A DNA stretch of 64,000 nt from an uncultured Faecalibacterium sp. (GCA_964542315.1 CAZIUA010000003.1:3679-67678), one strand, 5' to 3'; counted from the first letter of the stretch, positions 2,143 to 38,934 are shown. The notes: a model not told the origin generated them from the letters alone. Program-made: numbers and translations.

Positions 2143-2171
2143 TTGACGGCGAATGCAAAAACCGCTATAAT
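2143..2171 (+). promoter_or_regulatory. sigma-A type promoter
   Basis: TTGACG, 17-nt spacer, TATAAT. Confidence 0.55.
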
Positions 2172-2194
2172 CAGCCGTAGGGAGGATGAACGGG

Positions 2195-2734
2195 ATGACA
2201 GCATGCATTGAGCAGTTCCGGATGCCGCGCTATCGGGAGATCCCCGATGTGGGGCTGTATCTGGATCAAACGGTGAAGTACATCAACCGGTATCTGGCGC
2301 CCCTGGGGTGCATGGAGATCACCACGTCGATGGTGTCCAACTATGTCAAGAAGGGCTATATCGCCAATCCGGTGCACAAGCAGTACAACGCGGAGCAGAT
2401 CGCGCATCTGTTCTTCATCAGCGTGGCGAAATCTGTTCTGGCGATGGACAATATCGCCCGGATGATCGACCGCCAGCGCCAGTATTATCCGGCGGAACGC
2501 GCGTATGACTACTTCTGCGACGAGCTGGAGAATCTGCTCCAGTGTACCTTCGGGCTGAAGGACAAGCCGGAGGAGACCGGATCTCCGGACGAGCAGTCCG
2601 AAACGAAGACCATGCTGCGATCCATCATCATCGCGGTGACGCATGTGATCTACCTCTCTAACCGCTTTGAATTGATGAAGGCGCGCGAGGAGAGCGAACA
2701 GGCTGCTGAGAACGCGGAAAAGCAGGAACCCTGA
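2195..2734 (+). CDS. DUF1836 domain protein (MerR-like HTH region)
   Basis: The YLDQTVKYINRYL...ITTSMVSNYVKKG pattern matches DUF1836 from memory. The ATG at 2186 abuts GGAGGA, so the ATG at 2195 (spacing about 9) is preferred. Confidence 0.7.
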   Translation: MTACIEQFRMPRYREIPDVGLYLDQTVKYINRYLAPLGCMEITTSMVSNYVKKGYIANPVHKQYNAEQIAHLFFISVAKSVLAMDNIARMIDRQRQYYPAERAYDYFCDELENLLQCTFGLKDKPEETGSPDEQSETKTMLRSIIIAVTHVIYLSNRFELMKAREESEQAAENAEKQEP

Positions 2735-2807
2735 TGGACTTGCTGCGGTCTCGTCGTGGCGTTTCGCGAACGAAGGCTCCTGAAAAAATCATGGATGGGA
2801 TATCTGT

Positions 2808-2836
2808 GCCGCAGCAAACAAGGCTGCGGCTTTTTT
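2808..2836 (+). terminator. rho-independent terminator
   Basis: GCCGCAGC-loop-GCTGCGGC followed by TTTTTT. Confidence 0.75.
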
Positions 2837-3012
2837 ATGCGGCGGTTTGTTAAGCACGTGTTAGGTTACATATAAAAAGAATGATAGGCATCTATGAGAA
2901 ATAAGCATCCGAAATAACGACAAAATCCGAATAATAGGCAAGGGAAGGCGGAAGAAAAGCCGTTTTCCCTTTGCTTTTTTTAGTAAAAACAGCCCAAATG
3001 AACCAAAAAGCC

Positions 3013-3041
3013 TTGCACAAAGGGGCAATGTGATGTATAAT
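3013..3041 (+). promoter_or_regulatory. sigma-A type promoter of the 3.0-17.5 kb operon
   Basis: TTGCAC, 17-nt spacer, TATAAT. It lies inside the track ORF start at 3030, which argues for the 3099 start. Confidence 0.55.
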
Positions 3042-3098
3042 AAAGAAAAAGTCACAATTCAAGCTAACAAGAAGTTAACGAGAGGGTGGGCGCAGTTT

Positions 3099-4568
3099 AT
3101 GGATCGAAGCAACCTGACGCGCGGCCTGGCGGCGTTGGCCGTGGCTGCAGGGGTATGCATAGGCAGCGGCCTGGCGGAGGACGCGTACATCGACAAGGTG
3201 GAGGCTGAGACCGGCACGCTGCTGGGACAGGCGCAGGTCGCCGCGACGGGCGTATCCGTCAGCAAGCTGGAGCATGACGGCGATGGCGTCGAGGTCACGC
3301 TGACCGTGCCGGAAGCAGGGCATTACGACATCATCGTGCATCAGGCCAGCATCGGCGGCACGGAAAAGATCAACTTCGTCTCCGCCAACGGGCAACGCGT
3401 GGGGGAGGTCACATCCCCTGGTTCCAAATGGAATGACGGCGTGGTCGAATACGTCTGGCTGGAGCAGGGCGAGAACAAGGTGTCCGTCACCAAGTCCTGG
3501 GGATGGATCACCATTGATTACATCGCTGTGAAAAAGAGCGCGCCCTTCCCGGCGGACGTCTACGATGTGGCGCCGACCCTCATCAACCCCAATGCCACCG
3601 TGGAGGCCAGGCGCCTGATGACCTTCCTCTGCGACAATTACGGCAAGAAGATCATCTCCGGCCAGCAGTGCCAGGAAGGCCCCTTCGGCATGAGCGTTGC
3701 CGGTGTGTGGCGCGGCCTGGGCGGCAGCGATTATCCCGCCGTCGTGGGCATGGACGTCATCTCCTATGCGCCGGCGCGCGTGGCCAAGGGCGATACGAGC
3801 AAGGTGACTGAATACGCCATCGAATATTGGGAGAAGGGCGGCATCGTTACCCTCTGCTGGCACTGGTGCCCGGATGGCAAATATGACAACGGCAAGAACA
3901 ACTGGGGCACCTTCTACACCGAATATACCAATTTCGACCTGGCCAAGGCCATGAGCGGTGAGGACGCATACGGCTATGAGCATCTGCTGGCGGACATCGA
4001 CGCCATCGCCGCGGAGCTCAAGAAACTCCAGGATGCGGGCGTGCCGGTGCTCTGGCGTCCCCTGCATGAGGCCAGCGGCGGCTGGTTCTGGTGGGGGGCA
4101 TCCGGCCCGGAACCCTATCTGGAATTGTACAAGCTCCTCTATGACCGGCTGACCAATGTCCACGGGCTGAACAACCTCATCTGGGTGTGGAATGGTCAGG
4201 ATGCGGCATGGTATCCAGGTGACGAATATGTGGATATCATCGGCGAGGACATCTATCCCGGCGAAAAGGTGTATACCTCGCAGGCGGCGCGCTTCCTCAA
4301 GGCGCTGAGCTACACCGATACGCGCAAGATCATCACCCTGTCGGAGAATGGCTGCATCCCCGATCCGGATCAGTGCCTGCGTGATGAGGCGGTGTGGAGC
4401 TGGTGGTGCACCTGGGAGGGCGAATTCGTCCTCAAGAGCGCCAGCTTCAACGATTACTCCGAGCGATACACCGAAAAGAGCATGCTCAACAAGGCCTACA
4501 AGCATGACAGCGTCATCACCCGCAAGACGCTGCCCGACCTCAAGAACTACCCGCTGCGGGATGAGTAA
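3099..4568 (+). CDS. secreted GH26 beta-mannanase with an N-terminal CBM-like beta-sandwich
   Basis: WRPLHEASGGWFWWG, IWVWNG and ITLSENG are classic GH26 blocks. There is a signal-like N-terminus (LAALAVAAGVCIGSGLAED). The N-terminal module shows the ...VEAETG...GWITIDYIAV pattern typical of CBM6/35-type modules. Confidence 0.85.
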   Translation: MDRSNLTRGLAALAVAAGVCIGSGLAEDAYIDKVEAETGTLLGQAQVAATGVSVSKLEHDGDGVEVTLTVPEAGHYDIIVHQASIGGTEKINFVSANGQRVGEVTSPGSKWNDGVVEYVWLEQGENKVSVTKSWGWITIDYIAVKKSAPFPADVYDVAPTLINPNATVEARRLMTFLCDNYGKKIISGQQCQEGPFGMSVAGVWRGLGGSDYPAVVGMDVISYAPARVAKGDTSKVTEYAIEYWEKGGIVTLCWHWCPDGKYDNGKNNWGTFYTEYTNFDLAKAMSGEDAYGYEHLLADIDAIAAELKKLQDAGVPVLWRPLHEASGGWFWWGASGPEPYLELYKLLYDRLTNVHGLNNLIWVWNGQDAAWYPGDEYVDIIGEDIYPGEKVYTSQAARFLKALSYTDTRKIITLSENGCIPDPDQCLRDEAVWSWWCTWEGEFVLKSASFNDYSERYTEKSMLNKAYKHDSVITRKTLPDLKNYPLRDE

Positions 4569-4582
4569 GATTCGATGATTGG

Positions 4583-7500
4583 ATGGTGAACACAGTGAAA
4601 AGGACAATCAGCCTGGTGGGTCTGCTTCTGGCCCTGCTTCTGGCCTGTACGGCGCTGGCGGACGCCAATGGTGCAACGGCACTGACGGCTGCCGATTACC
4701 AGAACATCGTCAGCACCTACTCCATCAATGCCGACATTCCCAGCTATGCGGACTATCTTGAGGCGCATGAGGAAGCGCAGCGCCCCGATGCCGCCGTGAC
4801 GATCGATGCGGACACCTTCGTCCGCTATGAGGACGCAGGCGAGGCGGTCGAGCCGTCCATCCTGGCGGACTATGACGGCGAAAAGGGCAATGCCGTGCTG
4901 ACCGGTGAGGAATCCCTCATCGAGTGGGTCGTTACCGTGCCGGAAAGCGGCCTGTATGACCTGAACGTGCGCTATTACCCCTATGAGGGAAAGAACGGCG
5001 CCATCCAGCGCGCCTTCTTCATCGACGGCGCCCTGCCCTATGATGAGCTGGCGCTGGTGGAATTCAACCGCGTGTGGCAGAATGGCGACTTCGCTGAATA
5101 TGTGGATGAAAACGGCGTGACCCTGCGCCAGTGGAACAAGGATAACCAGGGCAACGACCTGAAGCCCTCCGCCAAGGAAGCCCCCGAATGGCAGAGCAAG
5201 GGCCTCTACGATTCCAATGGCTACATCACCGAGCAGCTCAGCGTCTACCTGACGGAAGGCGAGCACACCCTGACCCTGCTGGCCATGCGCGAGCCGATGC
5301 TCATCCGCTCCATCACGCTGGAAAACGCCGAGCAGATCGCGTCCTATGCGGATGTGAAGGCGGCAGGCGATGCGGCCGGGCAGAAGGACACCTCCGGCGT
5401 GTCCGTCCGCTTTGAGGCGGAAAACGCGGTCAAGACCTCCTCTCAGATGCTCTATCCCGTGCAGGATCAGTCCTCCGCGGCGGTGTATCCGGCGTCCACC
5501 CGCTATCTGCTGAACAATGCCATCGGCGGCAACGGCTGGAAGAACGCCGGGCAGTGGATCGAGTGGCACTTCGAGGTGCCGGAGGATGGTTATTACGCTA
5601 TCTCCCTGTATGACAAGCAGAACTTTGTGCGCGGTATCAACTGCTACCGCAAGATCTATGTGGATGGCGCGGTGCCTTTTGCGGAATTCAACGCCTATGG
5701 CTTCGGCTATGACGCCAAGTGGCGCATGGAGACCCTGAAAGACGCAAGCGGCGAACCCTACCGCGTGTACCTGACCAAGGGCGAGCACACCCTGCGCATG
5801 GAGGTCGTCCTGGGCGACATGGCGCAGATCATCGCCGAGGTGCAGAACTGCGTCCAGCAGCTCAACGACATCTACCGTCAGGTGATCTACATCACCGGCG
5901 TTGCCCCTGACCAGTATCGCGATTACCAGATCGAGAGCTCCCTGCCCGGGCTGGAGGATGCACTCATCCAGGTGCAGGAGGACCTGCGCGTGGCCATGGC
6001 GGCGCTGGAGGTCACGGCGGGCTCCAACTCCGACAAGATGACCGTCCTGCGCACGATGGATGACCAGCTGACCGAGCTGATCAAGGATCAGGAGCGCTTC
6101 ACCGAGGTGCTGTCCTCCTACAAGACCAATGTGCGCGCCTGCGGCAACTGGATCACCCAGGTGCTGGGCATGCCCCTGCAGGTGGACCGCCTTTACATCC
6201 ACTCGGCGGATGTGTCCCCCAAGGCGGAGGGCGAGAACTGGCTCAATGGGCTCATCCATGAGGCCAAGCGCATGTACTATTCCTTCATCATCGACTACAA
6301 CCAGGTCGGCAACGTGGCTGACGAGGATGGCGAAAACGTGGTGCTGACGCTGTGGATCGGCACCGGCCGCGACCAGGCTAATGTCATCAAGGCGCTGATC
6401 GATGAGAAGTTCACGCCGGAGACGGGCATCTCCGTCAACGTGCAGCTGGTGGACATGAACACCCTTCTGCGCGCGACCCTGTCCGGCGAAGGCCCTGACG
6501 TGGCCATCCAGGTGGCGAATACCAACGGCATCGCCGGCGGCGTGCTCAATACCGGCAACGATACGCCGGTGAACTACGGCCTGCGTGAGGCGGTGCTGGA
6601 TCTGGCACAGTTCGACGATTTCGAGACGGTGGCCGACCGCTTCGCCCCGGCCTCCCTGGTGCCTTTCTCCTTCAACGGCGCGACCTACGCCCTGCCGGAC
6701 ACCATGACCTTCCCCATGATGTTCTACCGCAAGGACATCCTGGCTGAGATCGGTCTGGAAGTCCCCGCCACCTGGGATGAGGTCAAGGTCGCCATGACCA
6801 TCCTGGCCAAGAACCAGATGGAGTTCGGCATGCTGCCCTCCGAGCAGATCTTCGCCATGCTGCTGTTCCAGAACGGCGGCGAGTATTACACCGAGGGCGG
6901 TATGGCTTCCGCGCTGGATGACGATATCGCCATCAACGTGTTCAAGCGCTACTGCGAATACTACACAGACTACAAGCTGGACAAGGCCACCAGCGTGGAG
7001 GAACGCTTCCGCACGGGTGAATGTCCCATCATCATCTCCGACTACACCACCTACAACAACCTGCAGGTGTCCGCACCGGATATCAAGGGCCTGTGGGATT
7101 TCACCATCGTCCCCGGCACGGTGCAGGCGGATGGCAGCATCAACCACGCCACCGGTGCATCCGGCCTGGCGGATATCATCATGAGCGCCACGGAGCACCC
7201 CGCGGAGAGCTGGGAGTTCCTCAAGTGGTGGACCTCTGCTGAGATCCAGACCCTCTACGGCCGTGAGATGGAATCCCTCATGGGCGCCTCCGCCCGTGTG
7301 GCCACCGCCAACAAGGAAGCCTTGGCGAACCTCTCCTGGCCGATGAAGGACTACAAGGCCCTCGTCGCCCAGATGGAGCAGGTCAAGGGCATCCCCCAGG
7401 TGCCGGGCGGCTATTACACCTGGCGCAATGTCAACAATGCCTTCTACACCATCACCAACAATACGGCCACCAACAATACCACCCCGCGTGAAGCGCTGAT

Positions 7501-7594
7501 GGACAAGGTCTTCTACATCAACGCCGAGATCAACTACAAGCGGGCGGAGTTCGGGCTCCCGCTCGCCGCCGATGTGAAGGAGGAGCAGCAATGA
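4583..7594 (+). CDS. 1003-aa lipoprotein: two CBM-like modules fused to an ABC-transporter substrate-binding domain (family 1, LplA/YtcQ-like)
   Basis: Lipobox LLAC. Two modules resemble the CBM-like module of the GH26 gene (VTIDADTF...YDLNVRYY and VRFEAENAV...GEHTLRMEV). The C-terminal half shows SBP features (LTLWIGTGRDQ..., ALPDTMTFPMMFYRKDIL). Confidence 0.8.
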   Translation: MVNTVKRTISLVGLLLALLLACTALADANGATALTAADYQNIVSTYSINADIPSYADYLEAHEEAQRPDAAVTIDADTFVRYEDAGEAVEPSILADYDGEKGNAVLTGEESLIEWVVTVPESGLYDLNVRYYPYEGKNGAIQRAFFIDGALPYDELALVEFNRVWQNGDFAEYVDENGVTLRQWNKDNQGNDLKPSAKEAPEWQSKGLYDSNGYITEQLSVYLTEGEHTLTLLAMREPMLIRSITLENAEQIASYADVKAAGDAAGQKDTSGVSVRFEAENAVKTSSQMLYPVQDQSSAAVYPASTRYLLNNAIGGNGWKNAGQWIEWHFEVPEDGYYAISLYDKQNFVRGINCYRKIYVDGAVPFAEFNAYGFGYDAKWRMETLKDASGEPYRVYLTKGEHTLRMEVVLGDMAQIIAEVQNCVQQLNDIYRQVIYITGVAPDQYRDYQIESSLPGLEDALIQVQEDLRVAMAALEVTAGSNSDKMTVLRTMDDQLTELIKDQERFTEVLSSYKTNVRACGNWITQVLGMPLQVDRLYIHSADVSPKAEGENWLNGLIHEAKRMYYSFIIDYNQVGNVADEDGENVVLTLWIGTGRDQANVIKALIDEKFTPETGISVNVQLVDMNTLLRATLSGEGPDVAIQVANTNGIAGGVLNTGNDTPVNYGLREAVLDLAQFDDFETVADRFAPASLVPFSFNGATYALPDTMTFPMMFYRKDILAEIGLEVPATWDEVKVAMTILAKNQMEFGMLPSEQIFAMLLFQNGGEYYTEGGMASALDDDIAINVFKRYCEYYTDYKLDKATSVEERFRTGECPIIISDYTTYNNLQVSAPDIKGLWDFTIVPGTVQADGSINHATGASGLADIIMSATEHPAESWEFLKWWTSAEIQTLYGREMESLMGASARVATANKEALANLSWPMKDYKALVAQMEQVKGIPQVPGGYYTWRNVNNAFYTITNNTATNNTTPREALMDKVFYINAEINYKRAEFGLPLAADVKEEQQ

Positions 7595-8514
7595 CGGCAA
7601 TGAATCGCCCCGTGCAAAAGCGCACGCCCCTGCTCAAACAGGTGCAGCGCTCCTATGCGTCCTACCTGATGATAGCGCCCTATTTCATCCTGTTCTTCCT
7701 CTTCACCGTCCTGCCGGTGGTGATGGCCATCGTGGTCTCCTTCACCGACTGGAACATGCTTCAAATGCCGAATTTCGTCGGCTGGAACAACTATGTCAAG
7801 CTCATCCTGGATGACGATATCTTTATGATCTCCCTGAAGAACACGCTGATCTTCGCCGTCGTCACGGGCCCGGTGAGCTACATGCTCTGTCTGCTCTTTG
7901 CGTGGATCATCAACGAATTCAACCGCGGCCTGCGTACCGTGCTGACGCTGATCTTCTACGCGCCGTCCATCTGCGGCAACGCCTACATGGTCTGGAACCT
8001 CATCCTCACCGGCGACCGCTACGGCTACCTCAACGGCATCCTGCTCAAGCTGGACATCATCAACGAGCCGATCCTGTGGATGCAGACGGAACAGTATGTG
8101 CTGCCGGTGCTGATCATCGTGCAGCTGTGGCTGAGCCTTGGTACGGGCTTCCTGTCCTTCATCGCCGGTTTGCAGACGGTGGACAAGAATATGTATGAGG
8201 CCGCGGCCATCGACGGCATCAAGAACCGCTGGCAGGAGCTGTGGTATGTGACCCTGCCCGCGATGAAGCCCCAGCTGCTCTTCGGCGCGGTGATGCAGAT
8301 CACCCAGTCCTTCGCTGTGGCGGATATCTCCATCAACCTGGCGGGCAACCCCTCGGTCAACTACGCCGGCGCGACCATCGTCACCCACCTGCTGGACTAT
8401 GGCTCCACCAGGCTGGACATGGGCTATGCGTCCGCCATCGCCACCATCCTCTTCCTGCTGATGGTCGGCACGAATAAGCTGGTACAGAAACTGCTGGGAA
8501 GGGTGGGTGAGTAA
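7591..8514 (+). CDS. carbohydrate ABC transporter permease (LplB/YteP-like), pair 1
   Basis: Multi-TM protein with the EAA-type loop region (YEAAAIDGIKNRWQELWYVTLP). ATGA overlap with the upstream stop. Confidence 0.9.
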   Translation: MTAMNRPVQKRTPLLKQVQRSYASYLMIAPYFILFFLFTVLPVVMAIVVSFTDWNMLQMPNFVGWNNYVKLILDDDIFMISLKNTLIFAVVTGPVSYMLCLLFAWIINEFNRGLRTVLTLIFYAPSICGNAYMVWNLILTGDRYGYLNGILLKLDIINEPILWMQTEQYVLPVLIIVQLWLSLGTGFLSFIAGLQTVDKNMYEAAAIDGIKNRWQELWYVTLPAMKPQLLFGAVMQITQSFAVADISINLAGNPSVNYAGATIVTHLLDYGSTRLDMGYASAIATILFLLMVGTNKLVQKLLGRVGE

Positions 8515-8517
8515 GCC

Positions 8518-9456
8518 ATGAGTGAAATGCTGAAGGGTCAGGTCCGCGTCAAGGATCTTCCGCCCAAGCTGCAGAAGAAGCTCCGCCGGCAGAAGATCGT
8601 CCCCTCCCTCAAGTCCAAGAAGCTCAACCGCTCCGTGGCGGGCAACACGCTTCTGTTCACCCTGATGGGCATCTGCGCCGTGTTCATGGTGCTGCCCCTG
8701 GTGATGATCGTCAACAATGCCCTCAAGCCCCTGGACGAATTGTATCAGTATCCCCCGAAGATCTGGGTGCGCAATCCTCACCTGGAGAACTTCTCCGACC
8801 TGTTCAATCTGATGAATGACTCCTGGGTGCCGTTCTCCCGATATATGATGAACACCGTCATCATCACCGGCCTGGGCATGGTGGGTCACGTCGTGGTGGC
8901 GTCCCTGGCGGCGTATCCGCTGGCGAAGCACCACTTCCCCGGCAAGAACATCCTGTTCAGCATGGTCGTCCTGTCGATGATGTTCTCCTGGACGGTCACG
9001 CAGATCCCCCAGTATGCCATCATCTCCTGGCTGGGCATCAACAATACCTACTGGGCGCTGGTGCTGCCGGCCTTCGCATTCGGCATGGGCCTGTATCTGA
9101 TGAAGCAGTTCATGGAGCCCCTGCCGGATTCGCTGATGGAATCCGCACGCATCCAGGGTGCGAACGAGTGGCAGATCTTCTGGAAGATCGTCATGCCCAA
9201 TGTCAAGCCCGCGTGGCTGACGCTGGCCATCTTCCAGTTCCAGCAGATGTGGGGCAACACCGGCTCCCTCTTCCTGCGTGATGAGCAATTGAAGCCCATG
9301 CAGTTCGCCCTGCAGCAGATCACGGCAGGCGGCGTGTCCCGCGCGGGCGCGGCGGCAGCGGTGACCTTCATCATCGCGGCGGTGCCGATCGCGTTCTTCC
9401 TGCTGTGCCAGTCGTCCATTCTTGAGACCATGACCACATCCGGTATGAAGGACTAA
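8518..9456 (+). CDS. carbohydrate ABC transporter permease (LplC/YtcP-like), pair 1
   Basis: EAA-type loop (MESARIQGANEWQIFWKIVMPNVKP). Lies 3 nt after the upstream stop. Confidence 0.9.
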   Translation: MSEMLKGQVRVKDLPPKLQKKLRRQKIVPSLKSKKLNRSVAGNTLLFTLMGICAVFMVLPLVMIVNNALKPLDELYQYPPKIWVRNPHLENFSDLFNLMNDSWVPFSRYMMNTVIITGLGMVGHVVVASLAAYPLAKHHFPGKNILFSMVVLSMMFSWTVTQIPQYAIISWLGINNTYWALVLPAFAFGMGLYLMKQFMEPLPDSLMESARIQGANEWQIFWKIVMPNVKPAWLTLAIFQFQQMWGNTGSLFLRDEQLKPMQFALQQITAGGVSRAGAAAAVTFIIAAVPIAFFLLCQSSILETMTTSGMKD

Positions 9457-9468
9457 GGAGGGAGCGAT

Positions 9469-12219
9469 ATGAACAATATGAAGAGATCACTCCCGGCCCT
9501 GCTGCTGGCTGTGATGCTCCTGTGCAGCATGCTGCCCGCTTATGCGGAGGAGCTGCCCTACGACACCTACAACTACGACTACTGGAACGACATCTTCCGC
9601 ACGCCCGCGGCCTATGTGCCGGAGGGCAGCGTCCTGGGGACGAAGCTGACCTGGCAGGGTCAGCCCCTGGGGGCGTTCGTCGAGCCGCAGGATCTCTGCG
9701 TCGCGCCGGACGGCACCATCTATCTGGCGGACACCAACAACCACCGCATCGTCGTGCTGGATGCCAGCATGACCACGGTGCTCAATGTCATCAAGGACTT
9801 TGACAACGCCGGCAGCGCGGATGAATTCAACAAGCCCACGGGCGTGGCCGTCACCGAGAACGGCGATGTGTACATTGCCGACTCCCAGAACCACCGCGTC
9901 GTCATCCTGCATGCGGACGGTACGCTCAAGGCGATCATCGAGATCCCGGCGGCGGCCGCCAGCCAGAAGCTCGGCACGTCCACCTACACCGTCGGCACCT
10001 ACATCGAGGGGCTGGACGGCATGGGTGAGTCCGTCGCGGATGAAAACGGCGACACCTACGTCGTGGTGAACCTCACGGCGGAAGGCGCGCAGTCCGTCAC
10101 CGATGCGGACGGCATGACCTACACCCTCGCGGCGGAGAACGAGTGGCTCAAGCCCTTCCAGACCAGCTTCACCGCGGAAAACGGCGCGACCCTCACCCTC
10201 GCGGAGGACGCATCCAGCGTCACCTACACCGACGCGGATGGCAATGCGACCGTCATCGCGAATTACGACCCCATCCCGAACAAGGACATCTTCACCTACA
10301 TCGGCCGCCTGGTCAAGAAGCTCCAGGGCAGCAGCGTCAGCATGAGCAAGGTGTCCACGCTGAACGCCAAGGGCGTGTGGATCGACGACGACGGCGACCT
10401 GTACATCTGCGGCGCGAAGTCCATCACCCAGCTCAGCCCAGAGGGCAAGCTCATCCGCACCTACGCCAGCTACAAGCAGGCGGACGGCACGCAGGTCAGC
10501 CTGACGACCATCAGCGAGTTCTGCGTGCAGGATGGCAATCTGTACATCCGCGACGATGCGAACCGCATCATCGTTCTGAACGAGGACGGCAAGCTGGTGG
10601 AGATCTGCCGCAGCAATGTCATCCGCACGGCGGATGCGGCGGTGGACGCCAGTGCCGGCCAGGCGCAGGAGCAGTTCAGCGCTGTGGCCATCGACCTGGT
10701 GGGCGATTATCTGCTCTCCGGCCTGGGCGACACTGTGATCGTCATGCGCAAGGACGGTACCTTCGTCCGGACCATCGAGAACAATGCGGTGCTCCGCCTG
10801 AATGCGGACGGCGAGATCGTCGAGACCATCACCGAAGTCCAGAACGGCAAGACCACCGAGCGCTTCAACGGCGTCAGCGGTGTGGCGATGCTGGATGGCA
10901 AGCTCTGCGTGCAGGAGGCGGACAACCGCATCCTGGTCATCGAGGGCGGCAAGGCCGTTCAGATGGCGCAGAACAACGCCGTCATGGTCACCGACGGCCA
11001 GAATAACCTGATCCGCACCATCACCGGCTATGAGCAGGAGGGCGAATTCCATCCCTTCGCCACGGTGGATGGCGTGAAGGGTGTGGCCCTGGGCTATGTC
11101 TGTGACAGCACGAAGCCCGCGGCCCAGCGCGTCCAGCGCCAGATCTCCATCGCGGACAGCCTGGATCAGCTCATCACTCTCAACACGGCGGATGAGGTCA
11201 TCCGCATCAGCGTCAACCCCGACAGCGAGGTGCTGGAGGACGGCTACGTCTTCACCCCGCTGAAGGTGAGCGTCGATTACGCCGGACGCGTGTACTGCGT
11301 GGCGCAGAACATGTTCGAGGGCATCATGGTCTTTGAGACCAATGGTGAATTCACCGGTTTCTTTGGCACGATCCCTGTGAACCTCACCGCGTGGGAGAAG
11401 TTCTGGCGCAAGCTCGCCACGAAGGAGGAGCGCTCCCAGCAGCAGCTCTTCATCCCCACCGAATTCACCGGCATCGACATCGACGAGGAAGGCTTCGTCT
11501 ATGCGTCCAATGTGGACAGCACCGGCACGCAGGCCGTCCGCCGCCTGAACCCCAAGGGCGAGGACGTCATCCGCCTGGGCTGGAGCGAGAACCTCGGCGG
11601 CGACCTGTGGATCGAAGGCACCAGCCAGTATGCCGGCGCGAGCAAGATGATCGACGTCGTCTACCGCGAGAAGGGCATGTACAGCCTGCTGGACTCCAAG
11701 CGCGGACGCATCTTCACCTATGACCACGAGGGCAATCTGCTCTACATCTTCGGCAGCATCGGCAGCCAGGCTGGCACCATGACCGCGCCCGTCGCCATTG
11801 AATTCGCGGGCGACCGCATCCTGGCGCTGGACGCCAAGCAGGCCAGCATCATCATCTATCAGGAGACGGAATACGGTCGCCTGATCAACGAGGCCGTGGG
11901 CCTGCGCTATGACGGCGATGAATCCCAGGCCGTGGCGCTGTGGGAGCAGGTGCTCCGCATGGATGAGAACAACGAGCTGGCCAATATCGGCATCGGCAAG
12001 GCGTATCTCTCTGCCGGTGACAATGAGAAGGCCATGGAATACCTGAAGCGCGGCATGAGCCAGGATTACTACTCCGTGGCGTTCAAGCGCTACCGCAACG
12101 AGGTGCTCAAGGCGAACATCCAGTGGATCCTCACCGGCGTGGTGGTGCTGATCGCTGCGCTGTGGGCGTTCTTCAAATTCGTCAAGCCCCGCATGCACAA
12201 AAAGGAAAGGAGAGTGTGA
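9469..12219 (+). CDS. NHL-repeat beta-propeller protein with a C-terminal TPR segment and C-terminal TM anchor
   Basis: Signal peptide (...MLPAYAEE). NHL-type repeats (IYLADTNNHRIVVLD, VYIADSQNHRVVILH and later copies). TPR-like ...NIGIGKAYLSAGDNEKAMEYLKRG. Terminal TM segment ILTGVVVLIAALWAFFKFV followed by basic residues. Confidence 0.75.
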   Translation: MNNMKRSLPALLLAVMLLCSMLPAYAEELPYDTYNYDYWNDIFRTPAAYVPEGSVLGTKLTWQGQPLGAFVEPQDLCVAPDGTIYLADTNNHRIVVLDASMTTVLNVIKDFDNAGSADEFNKPTGVAVTENGDVYIADSQNHRVVILHADGTLKAIIEIPAAAASQKLGTSTYTVGTYIEGLDGMGESVADENGDTYVVVNLTAEGAQSVTDADGMTYTLAAENEWLKPFQTSFTAENGATLTLAEDASSVTYTDADGNATVIANYDPIPNKDIFTYIGRLVKKLQGSSVSMSKVSTLNAKGVWIDDDGDLYICGAKSITQLSPEGKLIRTYASYKQADGTQVSLTTISEFCVQDGNLYIRDDANRIIVLNEDGKLVEICRSNVIRTADAAVDASAGQAQEQFSAVAIDLVGDYLLSGLGDTVIVMRKDGTFVRTIENNAVLRLNADGEIVETITEVQNGKTTERFNGVSGVAMLDGKLCVQEADNRILVIEGGKAVQMAQNNAVMVTDGQNNLIRTITGYEQEGEFHPFATVDGVKGVALGYVCDSTKPAAQRVQRQISIADSLDQLITLNTADEVIRISVNPDSEVLEDGYVFTPLKVSVDYAGRVYCVAQNMFEGIMVFETNGEFTGFFGTIPVNLTAWEKFWRKLATKEERSQQQLFIPTEFTGIDIDEEGFVYASNVDSTGTQAVRRLNPKGEDVIRLGWSENLGGDLWIEGTSQYAGASKMIDVVYREKGMYSLLDSKRGRIFTYDHEGNLLYIFGSIGSQAGTMTAPVAIEFAGDRILALDAKQASIIIYQETEYGRLINEAVGLRYDGDESQAVALWEQVLRMDENNELANIGIGKAYLSAGDNEKAMEYLKRGMSQDYYSVAFKRYRNEVLKANIQWILTGVVVLIAALWAFFKFVKPRMHKKERRV

Positions 12220-12221
12220 CC

Positions 12222-12854
12222 ATGAAGGAGCTGTTTGGCAAGGAAAAGTGGAAATACCTCTTCTATACCGTGACCCATCCCAGTGACGGATACTACTGGA
12301 TCCGCCATAAGGAGAAGGGCAGCGTGGGCATCGCGATGGTGCTGGTGCTCCTCTTTGGTCTGTGCTTCACCCTCAACCGCCTGCTGACGTCCTTTGTGGT
12401 CAGCGCGATCAATGTCCGCCAGGTGGACCTGCTGCCCGAACTGGGCGGCGTGGTGCTGCTGTATCTGCTCCTGTGTGTGGGCAACTGGTCCATCACCTGC
12501 CTGATGGATGGCGAGGGGCGCTTCAAGGACATCATGATCGCCATCGGCTATGCCATGCTGCCCATGATCATCACCTATGTGCTGGCCACCATCGTCAGCC
12601 GCTTCCTGGCGGATAACGAGCAGGCCTTCTACACCATCATCATGGGCATCGGCATCGCCTACACGCTGATCATGGCGCTCACGGGCATCATGCAGATCCA
12701 CAATTACACCCTCGGCAAGACGCTGCTGACCCTCCTGCTGACGCTGGTGGCGGTGTTCATCATCATCTTCCTGACGATGCTGGTGGCCAGCTTCATCGGC
12801 CAGGTGGTGGCGTTCTTCCAGAGCATCTATACCGAATTGATCTTCAGATTCTAA
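12222..12854 (+). CDS. Yip1-family integral membrane protein
   Basis: About five TM segments after a soluble N-terminus (KYLFYTVTHPSDGYYWI), resembling bacterial Yip1-domain proteins. Preceded by AAAGGAAAGGAGAG; lies 2 nt after the upstream stop. Confidence 0.65.
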   Translation: MKELFGKEKWKYLFYTVTHPSDGYYWIRHKEKGSVGIAMVLVLLFGLCFTLNRLLTSFVVSAINVRQVDLLPELGGVVLLYLLLCVGNWSITCLMDGEGRFKDIMIAIGYAMLPMIITYVLATIVSRFLADNEQAFYTIIMGIGIAYTLIMALTGIMQIHNYTLGKTLLTLLLTLVAVFIIIFLTMLVASFIGQVVAFFQSIYTELIFRF

Positions 12855-12872
12855 AGCGGGAGGGAAGGAAGC

Positions 12873-15491
12873 ATGAAAAACAAGAAGAATCATCCTGCTC
12901 CCGCGGCACAGGGCAGGAAGGGCTGGCTGTGGATCGTGCTGATCGCCGTGCTGGTCGCGGCGGCGGCGCTCCTTGGCTGGTACCTGATGCGCTATCAGTT
13001 CAACCGGGATTACCTGGCCTTCATCACCGAGCCGGCCGCTGCGGTGGAAGGCATGGAATTCACGCCCCTGGCGGATGATGATCCCGCGGTGGAGGGCATG
13101 GCGCTGGCTGCTGAAAACGGCACGCTCAAGCTCTACGCCAACGCATCCACGGGCGAAGTCGCGGTGCATGACCTGCGCAGCGGACGGACGGTCTACTCCA
13201 ATCCGCCCCAGGCCAACAGCGACAAGATCGCCAACAAGACCAACAAGAACTACCTCAAGTCCCAGTTCCTGCTGGAGTATTTCAACTCCGGCCTGACCGC
13301 CAACACCTATGACAGCTACACCAAGAGCGTGGAGCTGGGCAATATCAAGGCGGAATCCATCCCGGACGGCGTGCGCTTCACCTATGAGGTGGGCGAAGAG
13401 GTGGAGGTCTACTACGTTCCGCATCTGCTGTCCGATGCGCGCTTCCAGGAGCTGTACAACGGCTCTTCCGCCACGGTGCAGAAGCTGATGACCGGCCAGG
13501 CGAATTCCTTCTATGCACAGGATGAGGAAGGCAACTGGCGCATCACCGAGAACGGCGTGAAGATGTCCATCCGCAACCTGAACCGCATGTCCGAGAGCTT
13601 CCTTGAGCTGGGCCTGACGGTCGAGGAATACTACGACTGGCAGGAGAAGGCGGAAGTGACCGTCAACGAGGCGCTGGGTTTCACCGTGGTGCTGGAATGG
13701 ACCCTGCGCGGCGACGGCGTGGAATGCACCGTCCCGGCGGACCGCATCCAGGAGCGCGGCGGCGGCATGGTGCGCCGCATCCAGCTGCTGCCCTACATGG
13801 GTGCGGCCAGCGCGGAGGAAGAGGGCTACATCGTCGTGCCCAATGGCTCCGGCGCGCTGATCGACTTCAACAACGGCAAGACCACCAGCGCGGTCTACAG
13901 CCAGTATGTCTACGACATGGATCTGGTGGATGCGGAATACACCAAGACGCAGACCATCCAGTCCGTTCGGCTGCCGCTCTTTGCGCTTTGCCGCAAGGAC
14001 AGCACCGTTCTGGCCACCATCGAGAAGGGCGCGTCCTTCGCGTCCATCACGGCGGACATCAGTGGCCGCAACAATTCCTACAACAATGCCTATGTCACCT
14101 TCACCCTGCGCGGCAGCGGGAAGCTCTCCATGTTCGGCGCGGGTGAAACGGCGGATATGCCCATCGTGGAGAGCAAGCTCTACGACGAAACGCTGACCGT
14201 CCGCTACACCCTCCTGAACGAGGAGAACACCGGCTACAGCGGTGTGGCGAATTACTACCGCGCGCGCCTGCTGGATGAAGGCGTGCTGACCGAAAAGGCG
14301 GAAGGCGGCGACATCCCCTTCTACTATGACGTGATCGGCGGCGTGAAGGAGCGTACCCACACCCTGGGCGTGCAGCACCTGCGCGTGATGGCCATGACCA
14401 CCTTTGATGAGGCGGCTGAAATGACCGGCATCCTGGCGGACAAGGGCGTGACCCATCAGGTCATGAACTTCCAGGGCTGGATGAACGGCGGCTACTATCA
14501 CGATGTGGCGGATGACATCCGCATCCAGCGCCAGCTGGGCAGCAAGAAGGATCTGGAGAAGCTCAGCGCCGGTCTGACGGCCATGGGCGGAGAACTGTAC
14601 GCCGATGTGGCCCTCCAGAATGTGACCTATGTGGCCAAGCACTACCGCTATCAGGAGGAAAGCTCCCGCTATTACGGCGCGGGCTATGCGGTGTCCTTCG
14701 GCGAGGTGAATCCGGCGAACTTCCGCCGCACCGCCTCCCTGGGCTATTCCGAGAACCTCTATGACCTGCTGTCCCCCAAGTTCCTGCCCCATTACGTCAG
14801 CCATTTCATCGATGAGATGGACGATATCGACATCACCGGCATCTCCCTGCGCGACCTGGGCAATGAGCTGCATTCGGACAAGAAGCGCACCAATATCATC
14901 AACCGCGAGGAAGCGCTGATGATCGTGGAGGCGCAGCTGGATGCCCTTCGCCAGAGCGGCAAGCGCCTGATGGTCTCAGGTGGCAACGACTACGCCCTGG
15001 AAGGCGTCAGCCATGTGCTGGCCGCTCCCATGCAGGCCACGGAATACTTCATCGTGGATGAGAGCATCCCGCTGTACCAGATGATCGTGCATGGCTGCCT
15101 GGATTACACCGGGCGCGCCATCAACACCCTGACCAGTAACGACATGCGCGCAGACCTGCTCCACCTGGTGGAGTACGGCGCATCCACCAGGTACACCTTC
15201 ACCTGGGAGGACGCGACGGACATGAAGTACACCGGTCTGAACAAGTTCTATGCCACGACCTTCGCCTCCTGGGCGGATGAAGCGGTGGAGAACTACCAGT
15301 ACGTCAACGGCGCGCTGAAATGCGTCAGCAATGCCCGGATGGTCAGCCACGAGGCCCTCACCGACACGGTGAAGAAGGTCGGCTATTCCAACGGCGTGAC
15401 CATCTACGTCAACTACGGCACGGCGGATGCGCAGGCGGACGGCTACACCATCCCTGCCAAGGACTATCTTGTGATCGGAGGCGTGAATTAA
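12873..15491 (+). CDS. N-terminally membrane-anchored DUF5696-like protein (unknown function)
   Basis: A single N-terminal TM segment (WLWIVLIAVLVAAAALLGWYL) followed by about 830 aa outside. The family is assigned from memory of this gene context, not from a search. Confidence 0.6.
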   Translation: MKNKKNHPAPAAQGRKGWLWIVLIAVLVAAAALLGWYLMRYQFNRDYLAFITEPAAAVEGMEFTPLADDDPAVEGMALAAENGTLKLYANASTGEVAVHDLRSGRTVYSNPPQANSDKIANKTNKNYLKSQFLLEYFNSGLTANTYDSYTKSVELGNIKAESIPDGVRFTYEVGEEVEVYYVPHLLSDARFQELYNGSSATVQKLMTGQANSFYAQDEEGNWRITENGVKMSIRNLNRMSESFLELGLTVEEYYDWQEKAEVTVNEALGFTVVLEWTLRGDGVECTVPADRIQERGGGMVRRIQLLPYMGAASAEEEGYIVVPNGSGALIDFNNGKTTSAVYSQYVYDMDLVDAEYTKTQTIQSVRLPLFALCRKDSTVLATIEKGASFASITADISGRNNSYNNAYVTFTLRGSGKLSMFGAGETADMPIVESKLYDETLTVRYTLLNEENTGYSGVANYYRARLLDEGVLTEKAEGGDIPFYYDVIGGVKERTHTLGVQHLRVMAMTTFDEAAEMTGILADKGVTHQVMNFQGWMNGGYYHDVADDIRIQRQLGSKKDLEKLSAGLTAMGGELYADVALQNVTYVAKHYRYQEESSRYYGAGYAVSFGEVNPANFRRTASLGYSENLYDLLSPKFLPHYVSHFIDEMDDIDITGISLRDLGNELHSDKKRTNIINREEALMIVEAQLDALRQSGKRLMVSGGNDYALEGVSHVLAAPMQATEYFIVDESIPLYQMIVHGCLDYTGRAINTLTSNDMRADLLHLVEYGASTRYTFTWEDATDMKYTGLNKFYATTFASWADEAVENYQYVNGALKCVSNARMVSHEALTDTVKKVGYSNGVTIYVNYGTADAQADGYTIPAKDYLVIGGVN

Positions 15492-16409
15492 ATGAGTAAG
15501 CTGCATGTCTCCATGAAGACCAAGCGGGCAGTGAATGGCTACCTGTTCATCCTGCCCTGGCTGATCGGCTTTGTGCTGTTCTATGTGCGCAGCCTGTATC
15601 AGACGGTGGAATTCTCCCTGTCCTCGCTGACGGTGCTGCCGGCCGGCGGCTACGAGCTGGACTTCGTCGGTTTTGCGAACTACATCACGGCCTTCACCGG
15701 ACACGGCACCTTCAAGCAGACGCTGACCACCTCCCTGATGAACATGGTGGTGGATGTGCCGCTGATCATCTTCTTCTCCTTGTTCGTGGCGATGCTGCTG
15801 AACAAGAAGATGAAGTGCCGCGGCCTGGTGCGCGCGATCTTCTTCCTGCCGGTGCTGATGAACTCCGAGGCCATTGCCGGCACGCTGGAATACGCTGCGC
15901 AGATGATGGCCGGCGGCCTGAGCGGCACCTCCGCCGAAATGGCGGAAGCCGCCTCCTCCGGTACGGCGGTCAACATGGCCTACTTCGTTGAGCTCTTCGG
16001 CGAGATCGCCCTGCCCGAGGCGGTGCTGGACTATGTGGTGGGTGCGGTCAGCCGCATCAGCGACATCATCCAGGCCTCTGGTGTGCAGATCGTGCTGTTC
16101 ATCGCGGCGCTGCAGTCCATCACCCCGTCCATGTACGAGGTGGCGAAGATCGAGGGCGCGACCGGCTATGAGACCTTCTGGAAGGTCACCTTCCCCATGG
16201 TCATGCCCCACATCATCACCAACACCATCTACACCATCGTGGATGCCTTCAGCCAGTCCGAAGTGGTCAACCTGGCCTACACCACCGCTTTCACAGAGAG
16301 CAAGTACGGCCTGTCCTCCGCGTTCAGCGTGATCTCGACGGTCATCACCTGTTCGCTGCTGGCGCTGGTGGTGTACCTGATGTCCAAGAAGACCTTCTAC
16401 TACAACTAA
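15492..16409 (+). CDS. carbohydrate ABC transporter permease, pair 2
   Basis: Multi-TM protein with loop YEVAKIEGATGYETFWKVTFP. The start is directly adjacent to the upstream stop. Confidence 0.9.
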   Translation: MSKLHVSMKTKRAVNGYLFILPWLIGFVLFYVRSLYQTVEFSLSSLTVLPAGGYELDFVGFANYITAFTGHGTFKQTLTTSLMNMVVDVPLIIFFSLFVAMLLNKKMKCRGLVRAIFFLPVLMNSEAIAGTLEYAAQMMAGGLSGTSAEMAEAASSGTAVNMAYFVELFGEIALPEAVLDYVVGAVSRISDIIQASGVQIVLFIAALQSITPSMYEVAKIEGATGYETFWKVTFPMVMPHIITNTIYTIVDAFSQSEVVNLAYTTAFTESKYGLSSAFSVISTVITCSLLALVVYLMSKKTFYYN

Positions 16410-16427
16410 AGGGGAGGAGAGGAAAAC

Positions 16428-17366
16428 ATGAAAGCAATGGAAAAATGGCATGCGTTCCGCAATTCTCCCCGGTATGAGGATCGCAAGGGCGCGGCCTCCA
16501 AGAAAACCAAGAGCCTGCTGATGACGCTGCTGCAGATCGTGCTGATCGTGGGCATTGCCTACGTCATCCTCAGCCCGGTGATCGGCATCATCTCCCAGTC
16601 CTTCTTCTCCGACAGCGACTCGGCCAACCCCATGGTCTTCACCATCCCGATGAAGCCGACGCTGGAACGCTACAAGGGGGCCTGGACGGAGCTGAAATAC
16701 CCCACCACCCTGGCCTGGACGCTGGCCTATACCGTCATCAACACCCTGTTCCAGGTGTTCATCTGCTCCATGGTCGGATACGGCTTTGCGCGCTTTGAGT
16801 TCCCGCTGAAGAAGGTGCTCTTCGCCTGCGTGGTGGTGATGATCGTCATCCCCAACCACACCATCATGCTCTCGCAGTACATGACCTTCCGCGCGATGGA
16901 GCTGATGCGCTCCCAGATGCCGGTGTACATCCTGACCATCTGCGGCGTCGGATTGCGGTCGGGTCTGTATATCTACATCTTCAACCAGTTCTTCCGCGGC
17001 TTGCCCAAGGAGATCGAGGAGGCCGCCTTCGTGGACGGCGCCGGCACCTGGTACACCTACTTCCGCATCATGCTGGTCAACGCCATGCCTGCGGTCATCA
17101 CGGTGACGGTGTTCTCCCTGGTGTGGCAGTATAACGACATGTTCTACGCCAAGCTGTTCCAGATCCCCAATGCGCAGCTGCTGGCGCGCCAGCTCTCCAC
17201 GCTGCAGAGCAATATCGGCGCGAACCTGAAGATCATGAACGTGCGTATCCAGAAGCTCTACGTCAACGCGGGTGTGGTGCTGACGATGCTGCCCATCCTG
17301 ATCATCTACCTCCTGCTGCAGAAGCGCTTTGTCGAGGGCGTGGAACGCTCCGGCATCGTCGGCTGA
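16428..17366 (+). CDS. carbohydrate ABC transporter permease, pair 2
   Basis: Loop EEAAFVDGAGTWYTYFRIMLVNAMP. Preceded by GGGGAGGAGAGG. Confidence 0.9.
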   Translation: MKAMEKWHAFRNSPRYEDRKGAASKKTKSLLMTLLQIVLIVGIAYVILSPVIGIISQSFFSDSDSANPMVFTIPMKPTLERYKGAWTELKYPTTLAWTLAYTVINTLFQVFICSMVGYGFARFEFPLKKVLFACVVVMIVIPNHTIMLSQYMTFRAMELMRSQMPVYILTICGVGLRSGLYIYIFNQFFRGLPKEIEEAAFVDGAGTWYTYFRIMLVNAMPAVITVTVFSLVWQYNDMFYAKLFQIPNAQLLARQLSTLQSNIGANLKIMNVRIQKLYVNAGVVLTMLPILIIYLLLQKRFVEGVERSGIVG

Positions 17367-17383
17367 TGCAGGCTTGACAGAAC

Positions 17384-17410
17384 GGCGCGGGTGCTTTCAC
17401 GGTATCCGCA
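17384..17410 (+). repeat. 27-nt direct repeat, copy 1 (GGCGCGGGTGCTTTCACGGTATCCGC)
   Basis: Near-identical to 17504-17530 (one T/C difference). Confidence 0.8.
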
Positions 17411-17503
17411 CTGAAAAAGGATGTCCCGAAGGTTCCCAAAGGGCGACCGGAAAGCCCTTTGGTCGCCTCCGCGAGGCAAGATCCGCAAGAGGCAGCAAGA
17501 TCC

Positions 17504-17530
17504 CGGCGCGGGTGCTTTCACGGCATCCGC
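17504..17530 (+). repeat. 27-nt direct repeat, copy 2 (forms the terminator stem)
   Basis: Same sequence as copy 1 but followed by TTTTTT. Confidence 0.8.
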
Positions 17531-17538
17531 GCTTTTTT
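17508..17538 (+). terminator. rho-independent terminator closing the 14.5-kb operon
   Basis: GCGGGTGC-loop-GCATCCGC followed by a T6 run. Confidence 0.65.
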
Positions 17539-17592
17539 GTGCCATCTCAGAAAATGAAGGGTGAAGCGCGGAAAATGGGTGCTATTCAGCCG

Positions 17593-17621
17593 TTGACGGC
17601 CTGTCCGCCGCGTGATACAAT
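17593..17621 (+). promoter_or_regulatory. sigma-A type promoter
   Basis: TTGACG, 17-nt spacer, TACAAT. Confidence 0.55.
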
Positions 17622-17645
17622 GAAGAAAAAACAAGGAGAACCGAT

Positions 17646-18590
17646 ATGGAAAAGATCGTTGTGCTGGACGGTGCGGTGGAGAACCCCGGCGACCTCTCCT
17701 GGGAGCCGCTGGCAGCCCTGGGCGCGCTGACCGTCCATGATTATACCGCGCCGGAGGATGTGCTCAGCTGCATGGGGGATGCCGCCATTGTGCTGACCAA
17801 CAAGACCGTCATCACGGCGGACATGATGGCGCAGTGCCCGAATCTGCGCTATATTGGCGTGCTGGCCACGGGCTATAACGTGGTGGATGTGGCCGAGGCG
17901 AAAAGGCGCAGCATCGTTGTGACCAATGTGCCGGCGTATTCCACGCCCACGGTGGCGCAGTTCACCATGGCACTGCTGCTGGAGATCGCCCTGCATGTGG
18001 GGCATCACAGCGAAGCGGTGCATGCGGGCAAGTGGAGCGCCTGCCGGGATTTCGCCTTCTGGGACTATCCGCTCATGGAGCTGCGCGGCAAGACCATGGG
18101 CATCGTGGGGTATGGCAGCATCGGGCAGGAGGTCGCCCGGCTGGCGAAGGCCTTCGGCATGCGCGTGCTGGCCTATTCACGCCATGGCTGCGCGGAGGAT
18201 TATGCGCCGCTGGATGAGCTCTATGCCCAGGCGGACATCGTGTCCCTGCACTGCCCGCTGACGGCGGAAAATGCAGGCATGATCGACAAACACACCATCG
18301 CGAAGATGAAGGACGGCGTCATCCTGCTGAACACGGCGCGGGGCGGCCTCATCAATGAGCAGGACCTGCGCGAGGCGCTGCTGTCCGGCAAGGTGTATGC
18401 GGCGGCGTCGGACGTGGTGTCCGCAGAACCCATCCGGGCGGACAATCCCCTTTTGGGGCTGAAGAATATGATCATCACGCCGCATATCGCGTGGGCGGCG
18501 ACGGAAGCCCGTCAGCGCCTGATGGACATTGCCACGGACAATGTCCGCCAATTCCTGGCCGGGCATGTGCAGAACAATGTGGCAAAATGA
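17646..18590 (+). CDS. D-isomer-specific 2-hydroxyacid dehydrogenase (glycerate/hydroxypyruvate reductase-like)
   Basis: NAD-binding GKTMGIVGYGSIGQEVA, plus the LNTARGGLI and ITPHIAWAT blocks typical of the family. Confidence 0.9.
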   Translation: MEKIVVLDGAVENPGDLSWEPLAALGALTVHDYTAPEDVLSCMGDAAIVLTNKTVITADMMAQCPNLRYIGVLATGYNVVDVAEAKRRSIVVTNVPAYSTPTVAQFTMALLLEIALHVGHHSEAVHAGKWSACRDFAFWDYPLMELRGKTMGIVGYGSIGQEVARLAKAFGMRVLAYSRHGCAEDYAPLDELYAQADIVSLHCPLTAENAGMIDKHTIAKMKDGVILLNTARGGLINEQDLREALLSGKVYAAASDVVSAEPIRADNPLLGLKNMIITPHIAWAATEARQRLMDIATDNVRQFLAGHVQNNVAK

Positions 18591-18602
18591 GGAGGGCTGA
18601 CG

Positions 18603-38931: not shown

Positions 38932-38934
38932 ACA

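Follow-up and report, generated by a model that had tools for sequence, protein, structure and literature searches.

How can a carbohydrate import locus operate two pairs of ATP-binding cassette (ABC) permeases when it encodes a single substrate-binding protein (SBP)? This question is raised by a cluster of nine co-directional open reading frames (ORFs), located at 3099-17366 on the + strand of a stretch of 64,000 nucleotides from an uncultured Faecalibacterium sp. (GCA_964542315.1 CAZIUA010000003.1:3679-67678). This whole stretch is referred to as the window, and positions are counted from its first letter. The cluster encodes, in this order, a GH26 mannanase, a giant binding protein (SBP1), a first permease pair (P1a and P1b), an NHL/TPR protein, a Yip1-family protein, a DUF5696 protein, and a second permease pair (P2a and P2b). 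An earlier note on this DNA had taken one SBP for two translocators to be a built-in arrangement. We found that homologous loci carry a second SBP, which appears to have been lost here, and that the nine-gene cluster is probably a truncated copy of a Bacillota-wide locus type.

Conservation of the Locus across Bacillota

A genome collection containing one genome per species was scanned with the DUF5696 protein, which yielded 70 loci from Faecalibacterium-like and other Oscillospirales and from many Lachnospiraceae (individual loci are denoted by L numbers). All nine genes (GH26, SBP1, P1a, P1b, NHL, Yip1, DUF5696, P2a, and P2b) were detected by tblastn in 50 of these loci; in the remaining 20, the contig is short or truncated or one gene is matched weakly, and no deviating order was seen. 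The earlier note had named lack of synteny as an argument against its reading; this argument fails, because the order is conserved in every locus that is long enough to tell. The same gene order was observed in ~80 loci overall, from Oscillospirales, Lachnospiraceae, and Bacilli, and the Lachnospiraceae insert a DUF624/YesL gene between GH26 and SBP1.

Clustering of flanking ORFs revealed two conserved genes directly past P2b in the relatives. One encodes a secreted protein with three carbohydrate-binding modules (CBMs) of the CBM65_1 type (3e-75), denoted here 3xCBM65, and the other encodes SBP2, an SBP_bac_1 protein of 465-495 aa. As informative, we considered those loci of the genome collection in which the sequence continues for 3.7 kb or more after a genuine P2b (n = 46): SBP2 is present in 46 of 46, and the 3xCBM65 protein in 45 of 46. 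Four loci that seemed to be without SBP2 (L010, L040, L045, and L067) were rejected, as their contigs stop before pair 2 and the apparent P2b is a cross-match of P1b. SBP2 was also found in L071, L074-L079, and L081. It is located after pair 2 in Clostridia, usually behind the 3xCBM65 protein, and before the giant SBP in Bacilli. Further downstream, CE2, GH130, a LacI regulator, GH5, and CE4 occur variably among the relatives, and in many of them a LacI or AraC regulator, GH130, CE2, or GH5 adjoins the cluster.

Deeper contexts were obtained from DUF5696 members of ~30% identity, which belong to two groups, “double” and “single” loci. The double locus of Paenibacillus amylolyticus consists of LacI (on the - strand), SBP460, the giant SBP975, two permeases, NHL488, Yip1, DUF5696, two permeases, and GH26; those of Lederbergia and Evansella share this core (small SBP, giant SBP, two permeases, NHL, Yip1, DUF5696, and two permeases), together with AraC and DUF624 or with GH113. 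In an unclassified Bacillota bin (L077), the order is giant SBP, two permeases, NHL, Yip1, DUF5696, two permeases, and SBP473. The two single loci (L076 and L078) contain a fusion of NHL-(TPR) with Yip1, a longer DUF5696 protein (920-1000 aa), one permease pair, and a small SBP. Comparisons by tblastn indicate that this SBP is SBP2-like, and that the permeases are 35-39% identical to P2a/P2b versus 24-26% to P1a/P1b. Because the single loci hold exactly these genes, NHL, Yip1, DUF5696, P2, and SBP2 can be regarded as a self-standing module, to which the giant SBP and P1 appear to have been joined as a second module; SBP2 is likely to be the native partner of pair 2. The SBP lost from the window would then be that of the apparent core module. 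The identity between the pairs is 24% for P2a and P1a and 23-24% for P2b and P1b, which rules out an origin of pair 2 by recent duplication; the two pairs are ancient paralogues. P1a is 57-62% identical to its orthologues in Bacilli and in L077.

It should be noted that the locus type is very common, spanning Clostridia and Bacilli. Among the 90%-identity clusters from Logan assemblies, the DUF5696 cluster P0051 has 14,105 members and the SBP1 cluster P0153 has 12,647; such large clusters indicate that public sequencing runs contain the locus of one relative, with proteins 59% and 77% identical to those of the window, at extremely high frequency.

Loss of the Second Binding Protein and the State of Pair 2

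The tail that consists of the CBM65 and SBP2 genes is kept in L003, L081, and L071, in which the DUF5696 proteins are 72%, 77%, and 80% identical, respectively, to that of the window. The relatives at 88-91% identity have a different end. In L072 (91%), P2b is followed by the same hairpin and the same 2-Hacid_dh and DUF3783 genes as in the window, and L001 (91%) and L080 (88%) share the hairpin junction past P2b, after which their contigs end. Every informative locus outside this 88-91% clade has two SBPs, and a CE2 gene follows SBP2 in the close relatives L003-L009. An assembly artefact at the cluster end, e.g., a chimeric join past P2b, could be suspected from the draft or metagenome-like source and from the breaks of L001 and L080 near the same point. 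This is hardly credible, since L072 is an independent Logan assembly that crosses the same junction, and L001 and L080 carry the same hairpin sequence; the shared junction points to a real and inherited one. Comparison of these loci indicates that the window and its 88-91% relatives lost the CBM65-SBP2 tail, apparently together with the CE2 gene, and that the orphan pair 2 would be the result of a lineage-specific, derived deletion. The Bacilli and the single loci argue against a recent insertion of CBM65-SBP2 in the other relatives. Thus, the earlier note was correct in that pair 2 of the window has no SBP in cis, but this is unlikely to be the native design, given SBP2 in all 46 informative relatives, an outcome that the note itself had listed as speaking against its reading.

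Rates of evolution were estimated by the Nei-Gojobori method between the window and the tail-less L001 and L072, for which dS is ~0.24-0.30. The ratio of nonsynonymous to synonymous rates (dN/dS) is 0.06-0.07 for P2a and 0.02-0.03 for P2b; the values are 0.015-0.04 for P1a and P1b, and 0.16-0.19 for DUF5696 and NHL. Pair 2 is clearly maintained under strong purifying selection. If pair 2 were a decaying, non-functional remnant, as the missing cis SBP and the deletion of the CBM65 protein and CE2 genes might suggest, its sequence would hardly look as it does: the frames and EAA loops are undamaged, identity to the L001 and L072 counterparts is 96% for P2a and 99% for P2b, and pair 2 (dN/dS 0.02-0.07) is as constrained as pair 1. 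Decay is, therefore, very improbable. The same purifying selection is consistent with one giant SBP that natively serves two translocators, as are the high conservation of SBP1 (68-95% identity among the best 120 homologues) and the lack of a second SBP past pair 2 in the window, in L072, and, up to the contig ends, in L001 and L080. Nevertheless, a native arrangement of this kind is unlikely: in addition to the informative loci, an SBP2-type protein is present in four non-Clostridia Bacillota loci and in the two single loci, and the tail-less state is limited to the closest relatives. It is possible, although we would give it somewhat less than an even chance, that SBP2 (perhaps with the CBM65 protein, GH130, CE2, and a regulator) was relocated and acts in trans from elsewhere in the genome. 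The constraint on P2a/P2b implies that the importer works, for which an SBP is normally required; SBP2 already differs in position between Clostridia (after pair 2) and Bacilli (before SBP1); and the intracellular mannan enzymes missing from the window must be elsewhere if the pathway exists. Conversely, SBP2, the CBM65 protein, LacI, GH130, CE2, and GH5 have no match in the 64-kb window. A look-up with the exact sequence of the window's DUF5696 protein returned no indexed contig.

Under the lineage-specific deletion, which we favor, the SBP of pair 2 in the window lineage would be encoded elsewhere or SBP1 would substitute for it. The deletion explains the orphan pair 2 and so lowers the surprise of one SBP with two permease pairs. 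A lineage in which SBP2 is lost, yet pair 2 remains constrained, can be viewed as a natural experiment on the strictness of pairing between SBP and translocon; if SBP1 does serve both translocons, it would be a case of one binding protein common to two permease pairs.

Gene Content of the Cluster

The junctions between the nine genes are 4568/4583, 7594/7591, 8514/8518, 9456/9469, 12219/12222, 12854/12873, 15491/15492, and 16409/16428, so that the intergenic spacing is between -4 and +18 nt. All junctions listed in the earlier note were reproduced by ORF calling, and its domain assignments were borne out by Pfam, which gives GH26, SBP, a permease pair, NHL, Yip1, DUF5696, and a permease pair. 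A codon-usage score trained on the cluster prefers the nine frames over many spurious antisense ORFs in this sequence of 60% G+C. The exception is Yip1, which an overlap filter removed because its longer ORF, opening with GTG, runs into the NHL gene. The layout, as read from the sequence, is that of a real operon-like cluster.

The first gene (3099-4568) encodes a predicted secreted endo-β-1,4-mannanase with CBM35 and GH26 domains (Pfam GH26, PF02156, 1e-72; CBM35, 8e-13). The signal peptide and the catalytic motifs PLHE and LSENG are present, and the best match in the PDB is 3zm8, a GH26-CBM35 mannanase (3e-90), with other solved endo-mannanases, including a rumen GH26, among the further matches. 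The start codon ATG at 3099, with GAGAGGG just upstream, is likelier than the alternative GTG at 3030, because the latter falls within the promoter-like site.

SBP1 (4583-7594) is a giant lipoprotein of 1003 aa, in which the SBP_bac_1 match (PF01547, 4e-19) is confined to residues 601-889. An N-terminal hydrophobic segment with the lipobox-like LLAC is followed by β-sandwiches at ~72-247 and ~274-409, a helical stalk at 413-528, and the SBP_bac_1 domain at ~585-900. The AlphaFold2 model has a mean predicted local distance difference test (pLDDT) of 60 overall, with a poor SBP domain, and we used its N-terminal half only; it is confident at residues 30-560, with two β-sandwiches and a helical bundle of ~115 residues. 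In Foldseek searches, the β-sandwiches match CBM6 and CBM35 folds, including the CBM35 of 3zm8, with a target-normalised template-modelling (TM) score of 0.65-0.73, in agreement with the claim that this giant SBP carries CBM modules. The nearest solved match of the SBP domain is Lin1841 (5ysb; 2e-16, residues 584-898). The SBP_bac_1 domain with a lipoprotein signal, next to pair 1, is the composition expected of a CUT1 importer. At 19353-22286 of L049, ~5 kb past the first locus, there is a second paralogue of the giant SBP, with 977 aa and 37% identity to SBP1; therefore, there can be several members of the giant-SBP family per genome.

Each of the four permeases has a BPD_transp_1 match in Pfam (PF00528) and UgpA/UgpE/MalG-like matches in NCBIfam, as expected of CUT1 permeases. 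P1a (7591-8514), a MalF/UgpA-like permease with UgpA/GlcT-like NCBIfam matches, starts within the stop codon of SBP1 (ATGA), and P1b (8518-9456) is MalG/UgpE-like. P2a (15492-16409) abuts the stop codon of DUF5696 with zero gap and is followed by P2b (16428-17366). EAA loops were found by motif search in P1b, P2a, and P2b, and by eye in P1a (YEAAAIDG).

Neither the cluster nor any one of the 79 related loci has a gene for a nucleotide-binding subunit. The earlier note had already reported that no ATPase is encoded in cis and had suggested a shared MsmX-type ATPase, and the consistent absence in all 79 agrees with this suggestion. CUT1 importers of Bacillota commonly share a single MsmX/MsmK ATPase, and a missing ATPase gene is usual; it is, therefore, no bar to CUT1 membership. 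The sole ABC ATPase gene in the 64 kb (Walker A and LSGGQ, 43748-44851, - strand) lies within another transporter operon. This separate ABC system (43748-48001, - strand) consists of the UgpC/MalK-like ATPase with an OB_MalK domain, a fused double permease of 602 aa, and a weak SBP_bac_8 protein. As an energiser of the cluster, this MalK/UgpC-like ATPase was set aside, since it belongs to a separate operon that also encodes an SBP and a fused permease; there is no evidence either way.

Three non-permease proteins are encoded between the permease pairs. The surface NHL β-propeller/TPR protein (9469-12219, 916 aa; Pfam NHL, 5e-17, and TPR_19) carries a signal peptide and is anchored in the membrane at its C-terminus, with hydropathy peaks at residues 4-22 and 879-897. 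It is 916 aa long in the window and in close Oscillospirales relatives and ~490 aa in Lachnospiraceae and Bacilli, and the extra ~420 residues (about 165-585) have no Pfam match. The Yip1-family membrane protein (12222-12854; Pfam Yip1, 5e-14) has five hydrophobic, predicted transmembrane segments. In the single loci, NHL-(TPR)-Yip1 is one polypeptide (L076, 7908-9986, 692 aa; L078, 7809-9971, 720 aa), which suggests that NHL/TPR and Yip1 work together as a single unit.

The third of these, the DUF5696 protein (12873-15491; Pfam, 1e-192), has one N-terminal transmembrane helix according to hydropathy, and its AlphaFold2 model has a pLDDT of 86.7 and a predicted TM score of 0.84. The best Foldseek matches of the model are the GH129 structures 5opq and 5wzn (E 1e-30 to 1e-25, target-normalised TM 0.69-0.72), followed by GH101, GH36, and GH31. 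The model thus predicts an extracellular, membrane-anchored protein with a GH129/GH101/GH36-like glycosidase fold. A sequence search of the PDB with DUF5696 returned nothing significant. Among members of 26-60% identity, E384 does not vary, and conservation reaches at least 90% at D350, D669, D729, and E767; these acidic residues, together with the modelled fold, fit a putative enzyme. The family is large, with 4757 clusters at 50% identity (E <= 1e-3).

Proposed Function

Judged from gene content, the locus most likely captures β-mannan oligosaccharides at the surface, trims them, and imports them through two channels. β-Mannan enzymes (GH26, GH113, GH130, CE2, and GH5) usually accompany it, and the recurrence of GH26, GH113, GH130, and CE2 among the neighbours suggests the β-mannan substrate. 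In the full locus, importer 1 would consist of SBP1 and P1a/P1b, importer 2 would consist of SBP2 and P2a/P2b, and the three membrane-anchored surface proteins (the NHL/TPR propeller, Yip1, and DUF5696) would be located between them. The secreted GH26 would cut β-mannan, and SBP1 would hold the surface glycan via its CBM-like modules and feed oligosaccharides to pair 1. The NHL-Yip1-DUF5696 unit would process a second class of oligosaccharides, perhaps decorated, at the membrane, and the products would enter through pair 2. DUF5696, the stop codon of which abuts the start of P2a, would perform this trimming beside pair 2. Both translocons would be energised by an MsmX-type ATPase encoded elsewhere, by analogy with the shared ATPases familiar from Bacillota CUT1 systems.

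Several points weigh against this scheme. GH130, CE2, and a regulator are not present within the 64 kb of the window, and the intracellular half of the mannan pathway is unseen there. The core locus of L077 has no mannanase or other glycosidase gene alongside, suggesting that the substrate may vary, and the neighbours of the single loci are different as well (FAD oxidoreductases, NanE, and DUF1861), which is a caveat for the β-mannan assignment. CBM65 is best known for binding of β-glucan and xyloglucan, not strictly mannan, and the module may be substrate-flexible. The pairing of SBP1 with P1 and of SBP2 with P2 is suggested by adjacency and by the composition of the single loci. As for the enzymatic role of DUF5696, a profile search against the PDB produced a single match, GH129 NagBb, with a marginal E of 0.03 over ~130 residues, and no superposition of its conserved acidic residues on established catalytic ones was obtained. 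A more far-reaching version, in which the NHL/TPR-Yip1-DUF5696 trio is a translocon-docked accessory machine (an enzyme of a new glycoside hydrolase family with a propeller/Yip1 scaffold) that couples trimming to uptake, and in which SBP1 or the trio serves both translocons in the tail-less lineage, is quite doubtful in our view.

Comparison with Known Systems

The components themselves are ordinary CUT1 parts and a GH26 enzyme. The Bacillus subtilis AraNPQ and GanSPQ are examples of CUT1 systems (TC 3.A.1.1) with a shared ATPase. The window cluster resembles them in having SBP_bac_1 and MalF-like and MalG-like permeases with EAA loops and no ATPase in the operon. Unlike AraNPQ and GanSPQ, it has two diverged translocons (23-24% identity), an SBP of ~1000 aa with two CBM6/35-like modules and a helical stalk, and the NHL/TPR, Yip1, and DUF5696 genes conserved between the permease pairs.

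β-Mannan utilisation loci, reportedly described by La Rosa in 2019, serve as a further comparison. We know of no DUF5696, Yip1, or NHL genes in the β-mannan loci of Roseburia intestinalis and Faecalibacterium prausnitzii. The likeness of the window locus to these loci is in the extracellular GH26 and the ABC importer (PMC8262883), and its relatives also share GH130, CE2, and LacI with them. The R. intestinalis and F. prausnitzii loci have one SBP and one permease pair. The window copy is without intracellular enzymes and a regulator. The β-mannan ABC transporter of Bifidobacterium animalis subsp. lactis is reported to have two SBPs that feed one permease pair (Ejby 2019, cited in PMC13278490). 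The full locus would be similar to it in using more than one SBP for manno-oligosaccharide uptake, as proposed here; the ratios of SBPs to pairs are two to one in B. animalis subsp. lactis, two to two in the full locus, and one to two in the window.

The DUF5696 model shares an N-terminal β-sandwich and a (β/α)8 domain with GH129 (NagBb, 5wzn; ZgGH129, 5opq) and GH101 (Foldseek E 1e-30 to 1e-15). This likeness is by predicted fold; unlike GH129 and GH101, DUF5696 has a membrane anchor and is linked genetically to ABC permeases, and the identity is 10-13%. Lin1841 of Listeria innocua, which among solved structures best matches the SBP domain of SBP1, is an SBP for β-1,2-gluco-oligosaccharides with ~400 aa, no CBM modules, and no stalk, and the similarity is too low for transferring ligand specificity.

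In the literature searched, we found no paper mentioning the DUF5696 family, none combining Yip1 with NHL, ABC/permease, mannan, or binding-protein, and nothing relevant on CBM65 with GH26. The locus type is not shown in the available portions of PMC13278490 (on β-mannan metabolism) and PMC5320581 (on polysaccharide utilisation loci of Gram-positive bacteria). A locus that combines two translocons with a CBM-fused giant SBP and the NHL-Yip1-DUF5696 trio appears to be uncharacterised. It offers a candidate new glycosidase family, an unusual CBM-fused binding protein, and a conserved two-channel importer design, and could explain the uptake of β-mannan-type dietary fibre by abundant gut Firmicutes.

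Promoter, Terminators, and Neighbourhood

Two terminator-like hairpins on the + strand (2808-2830 and 2940-2971; terminator scan and sequence) insulate the cluster from the upstream DUF1836 gene. The promoter-like site TGCACA-16-TATAAT is located at 3014-3041 (+), with TTGCAC as an alternative -35 element at a 17-nt spacer. The number of matches in the promoter scan equals that of shuffled sequence, and the scan alone is little proof; the -35 and -10 columns (CTTGC and TATA.T) are invariant in an alignment with four relatives. Further invariant columns mark a motif in the 5' untranslated region, CTAAC followed 7 nt later by TAAC (3064-3079, +). This motif sits between the -10 element and the ribosome-binding site and may be an operator for a regulator whose gene lies elsewhere. 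Domain searches of the cluster, its immediate neighbours, and the window ORFs scanned gave no regulator domain, consistent with the earlier observation that LacI, AraC, and two-component regulators are missing, and no riboswitch or leader RNA was detected by Rfam in 2000-19000.

At the other end, the deletion junction (17383-17539, +) corresponds to the point after pair 2 that is occupied in relatives by the CBM65 and SBP2 genes. Just after P2b, a 30-nt hairpin-forming repeat is present at 17383-17412 and 17504-17533; the copies are 93% identical and 121 nt apart. The T-run is on the second copy only, and this copy with its T-run is the strong terminator (17504-17533, +) of the terminator scan. 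The hairpin is in a single copy in L072 and L001, and in L080 the first copy and the beginning of the insert are present; the doubled hairpin may represent either a scar left where the deletion occurred or a small duplication there. No strong internal terminator was found inside the cluster by the terminator scan. The limits of 3013 and 17508 proposed earlier are supported by the promoter-like site and the terminator, with the correction that the last gene ends at 17366 and the hairpin is at 17504-17533. At the sequence level, the operon-like layout, the conserved promoter-like site, the terminator, and the lack of a strong internal one would fit the proposed single-promoter operon. A promoter-like TTGACG-18-TATCAT with an upstream TG was observed at 14644-14673 of L003, in the ~330-nt gap before the CBM65 gene, and the CBM65-SBP2 tail of the relatives may be a separate transcription unit.

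The cluster is surrounded by DUF1836, 2-hydroxyacid dehydrogenase, DUF3783, pectinesterase, and MatE genes. GH113 is not present in the 64-kb window. Scattered carbohydrate genes include a pectinesterase (19022-19972), a GH35 β-galactosidase (41497-43671), and a glycogen debranching enzyme (51107-53125). Two AMP-binding enzymes, an MBOAT acyltransferase, and an ORF of 95 aa at 34530-40443 constitute a dlt-like acylation cluster.

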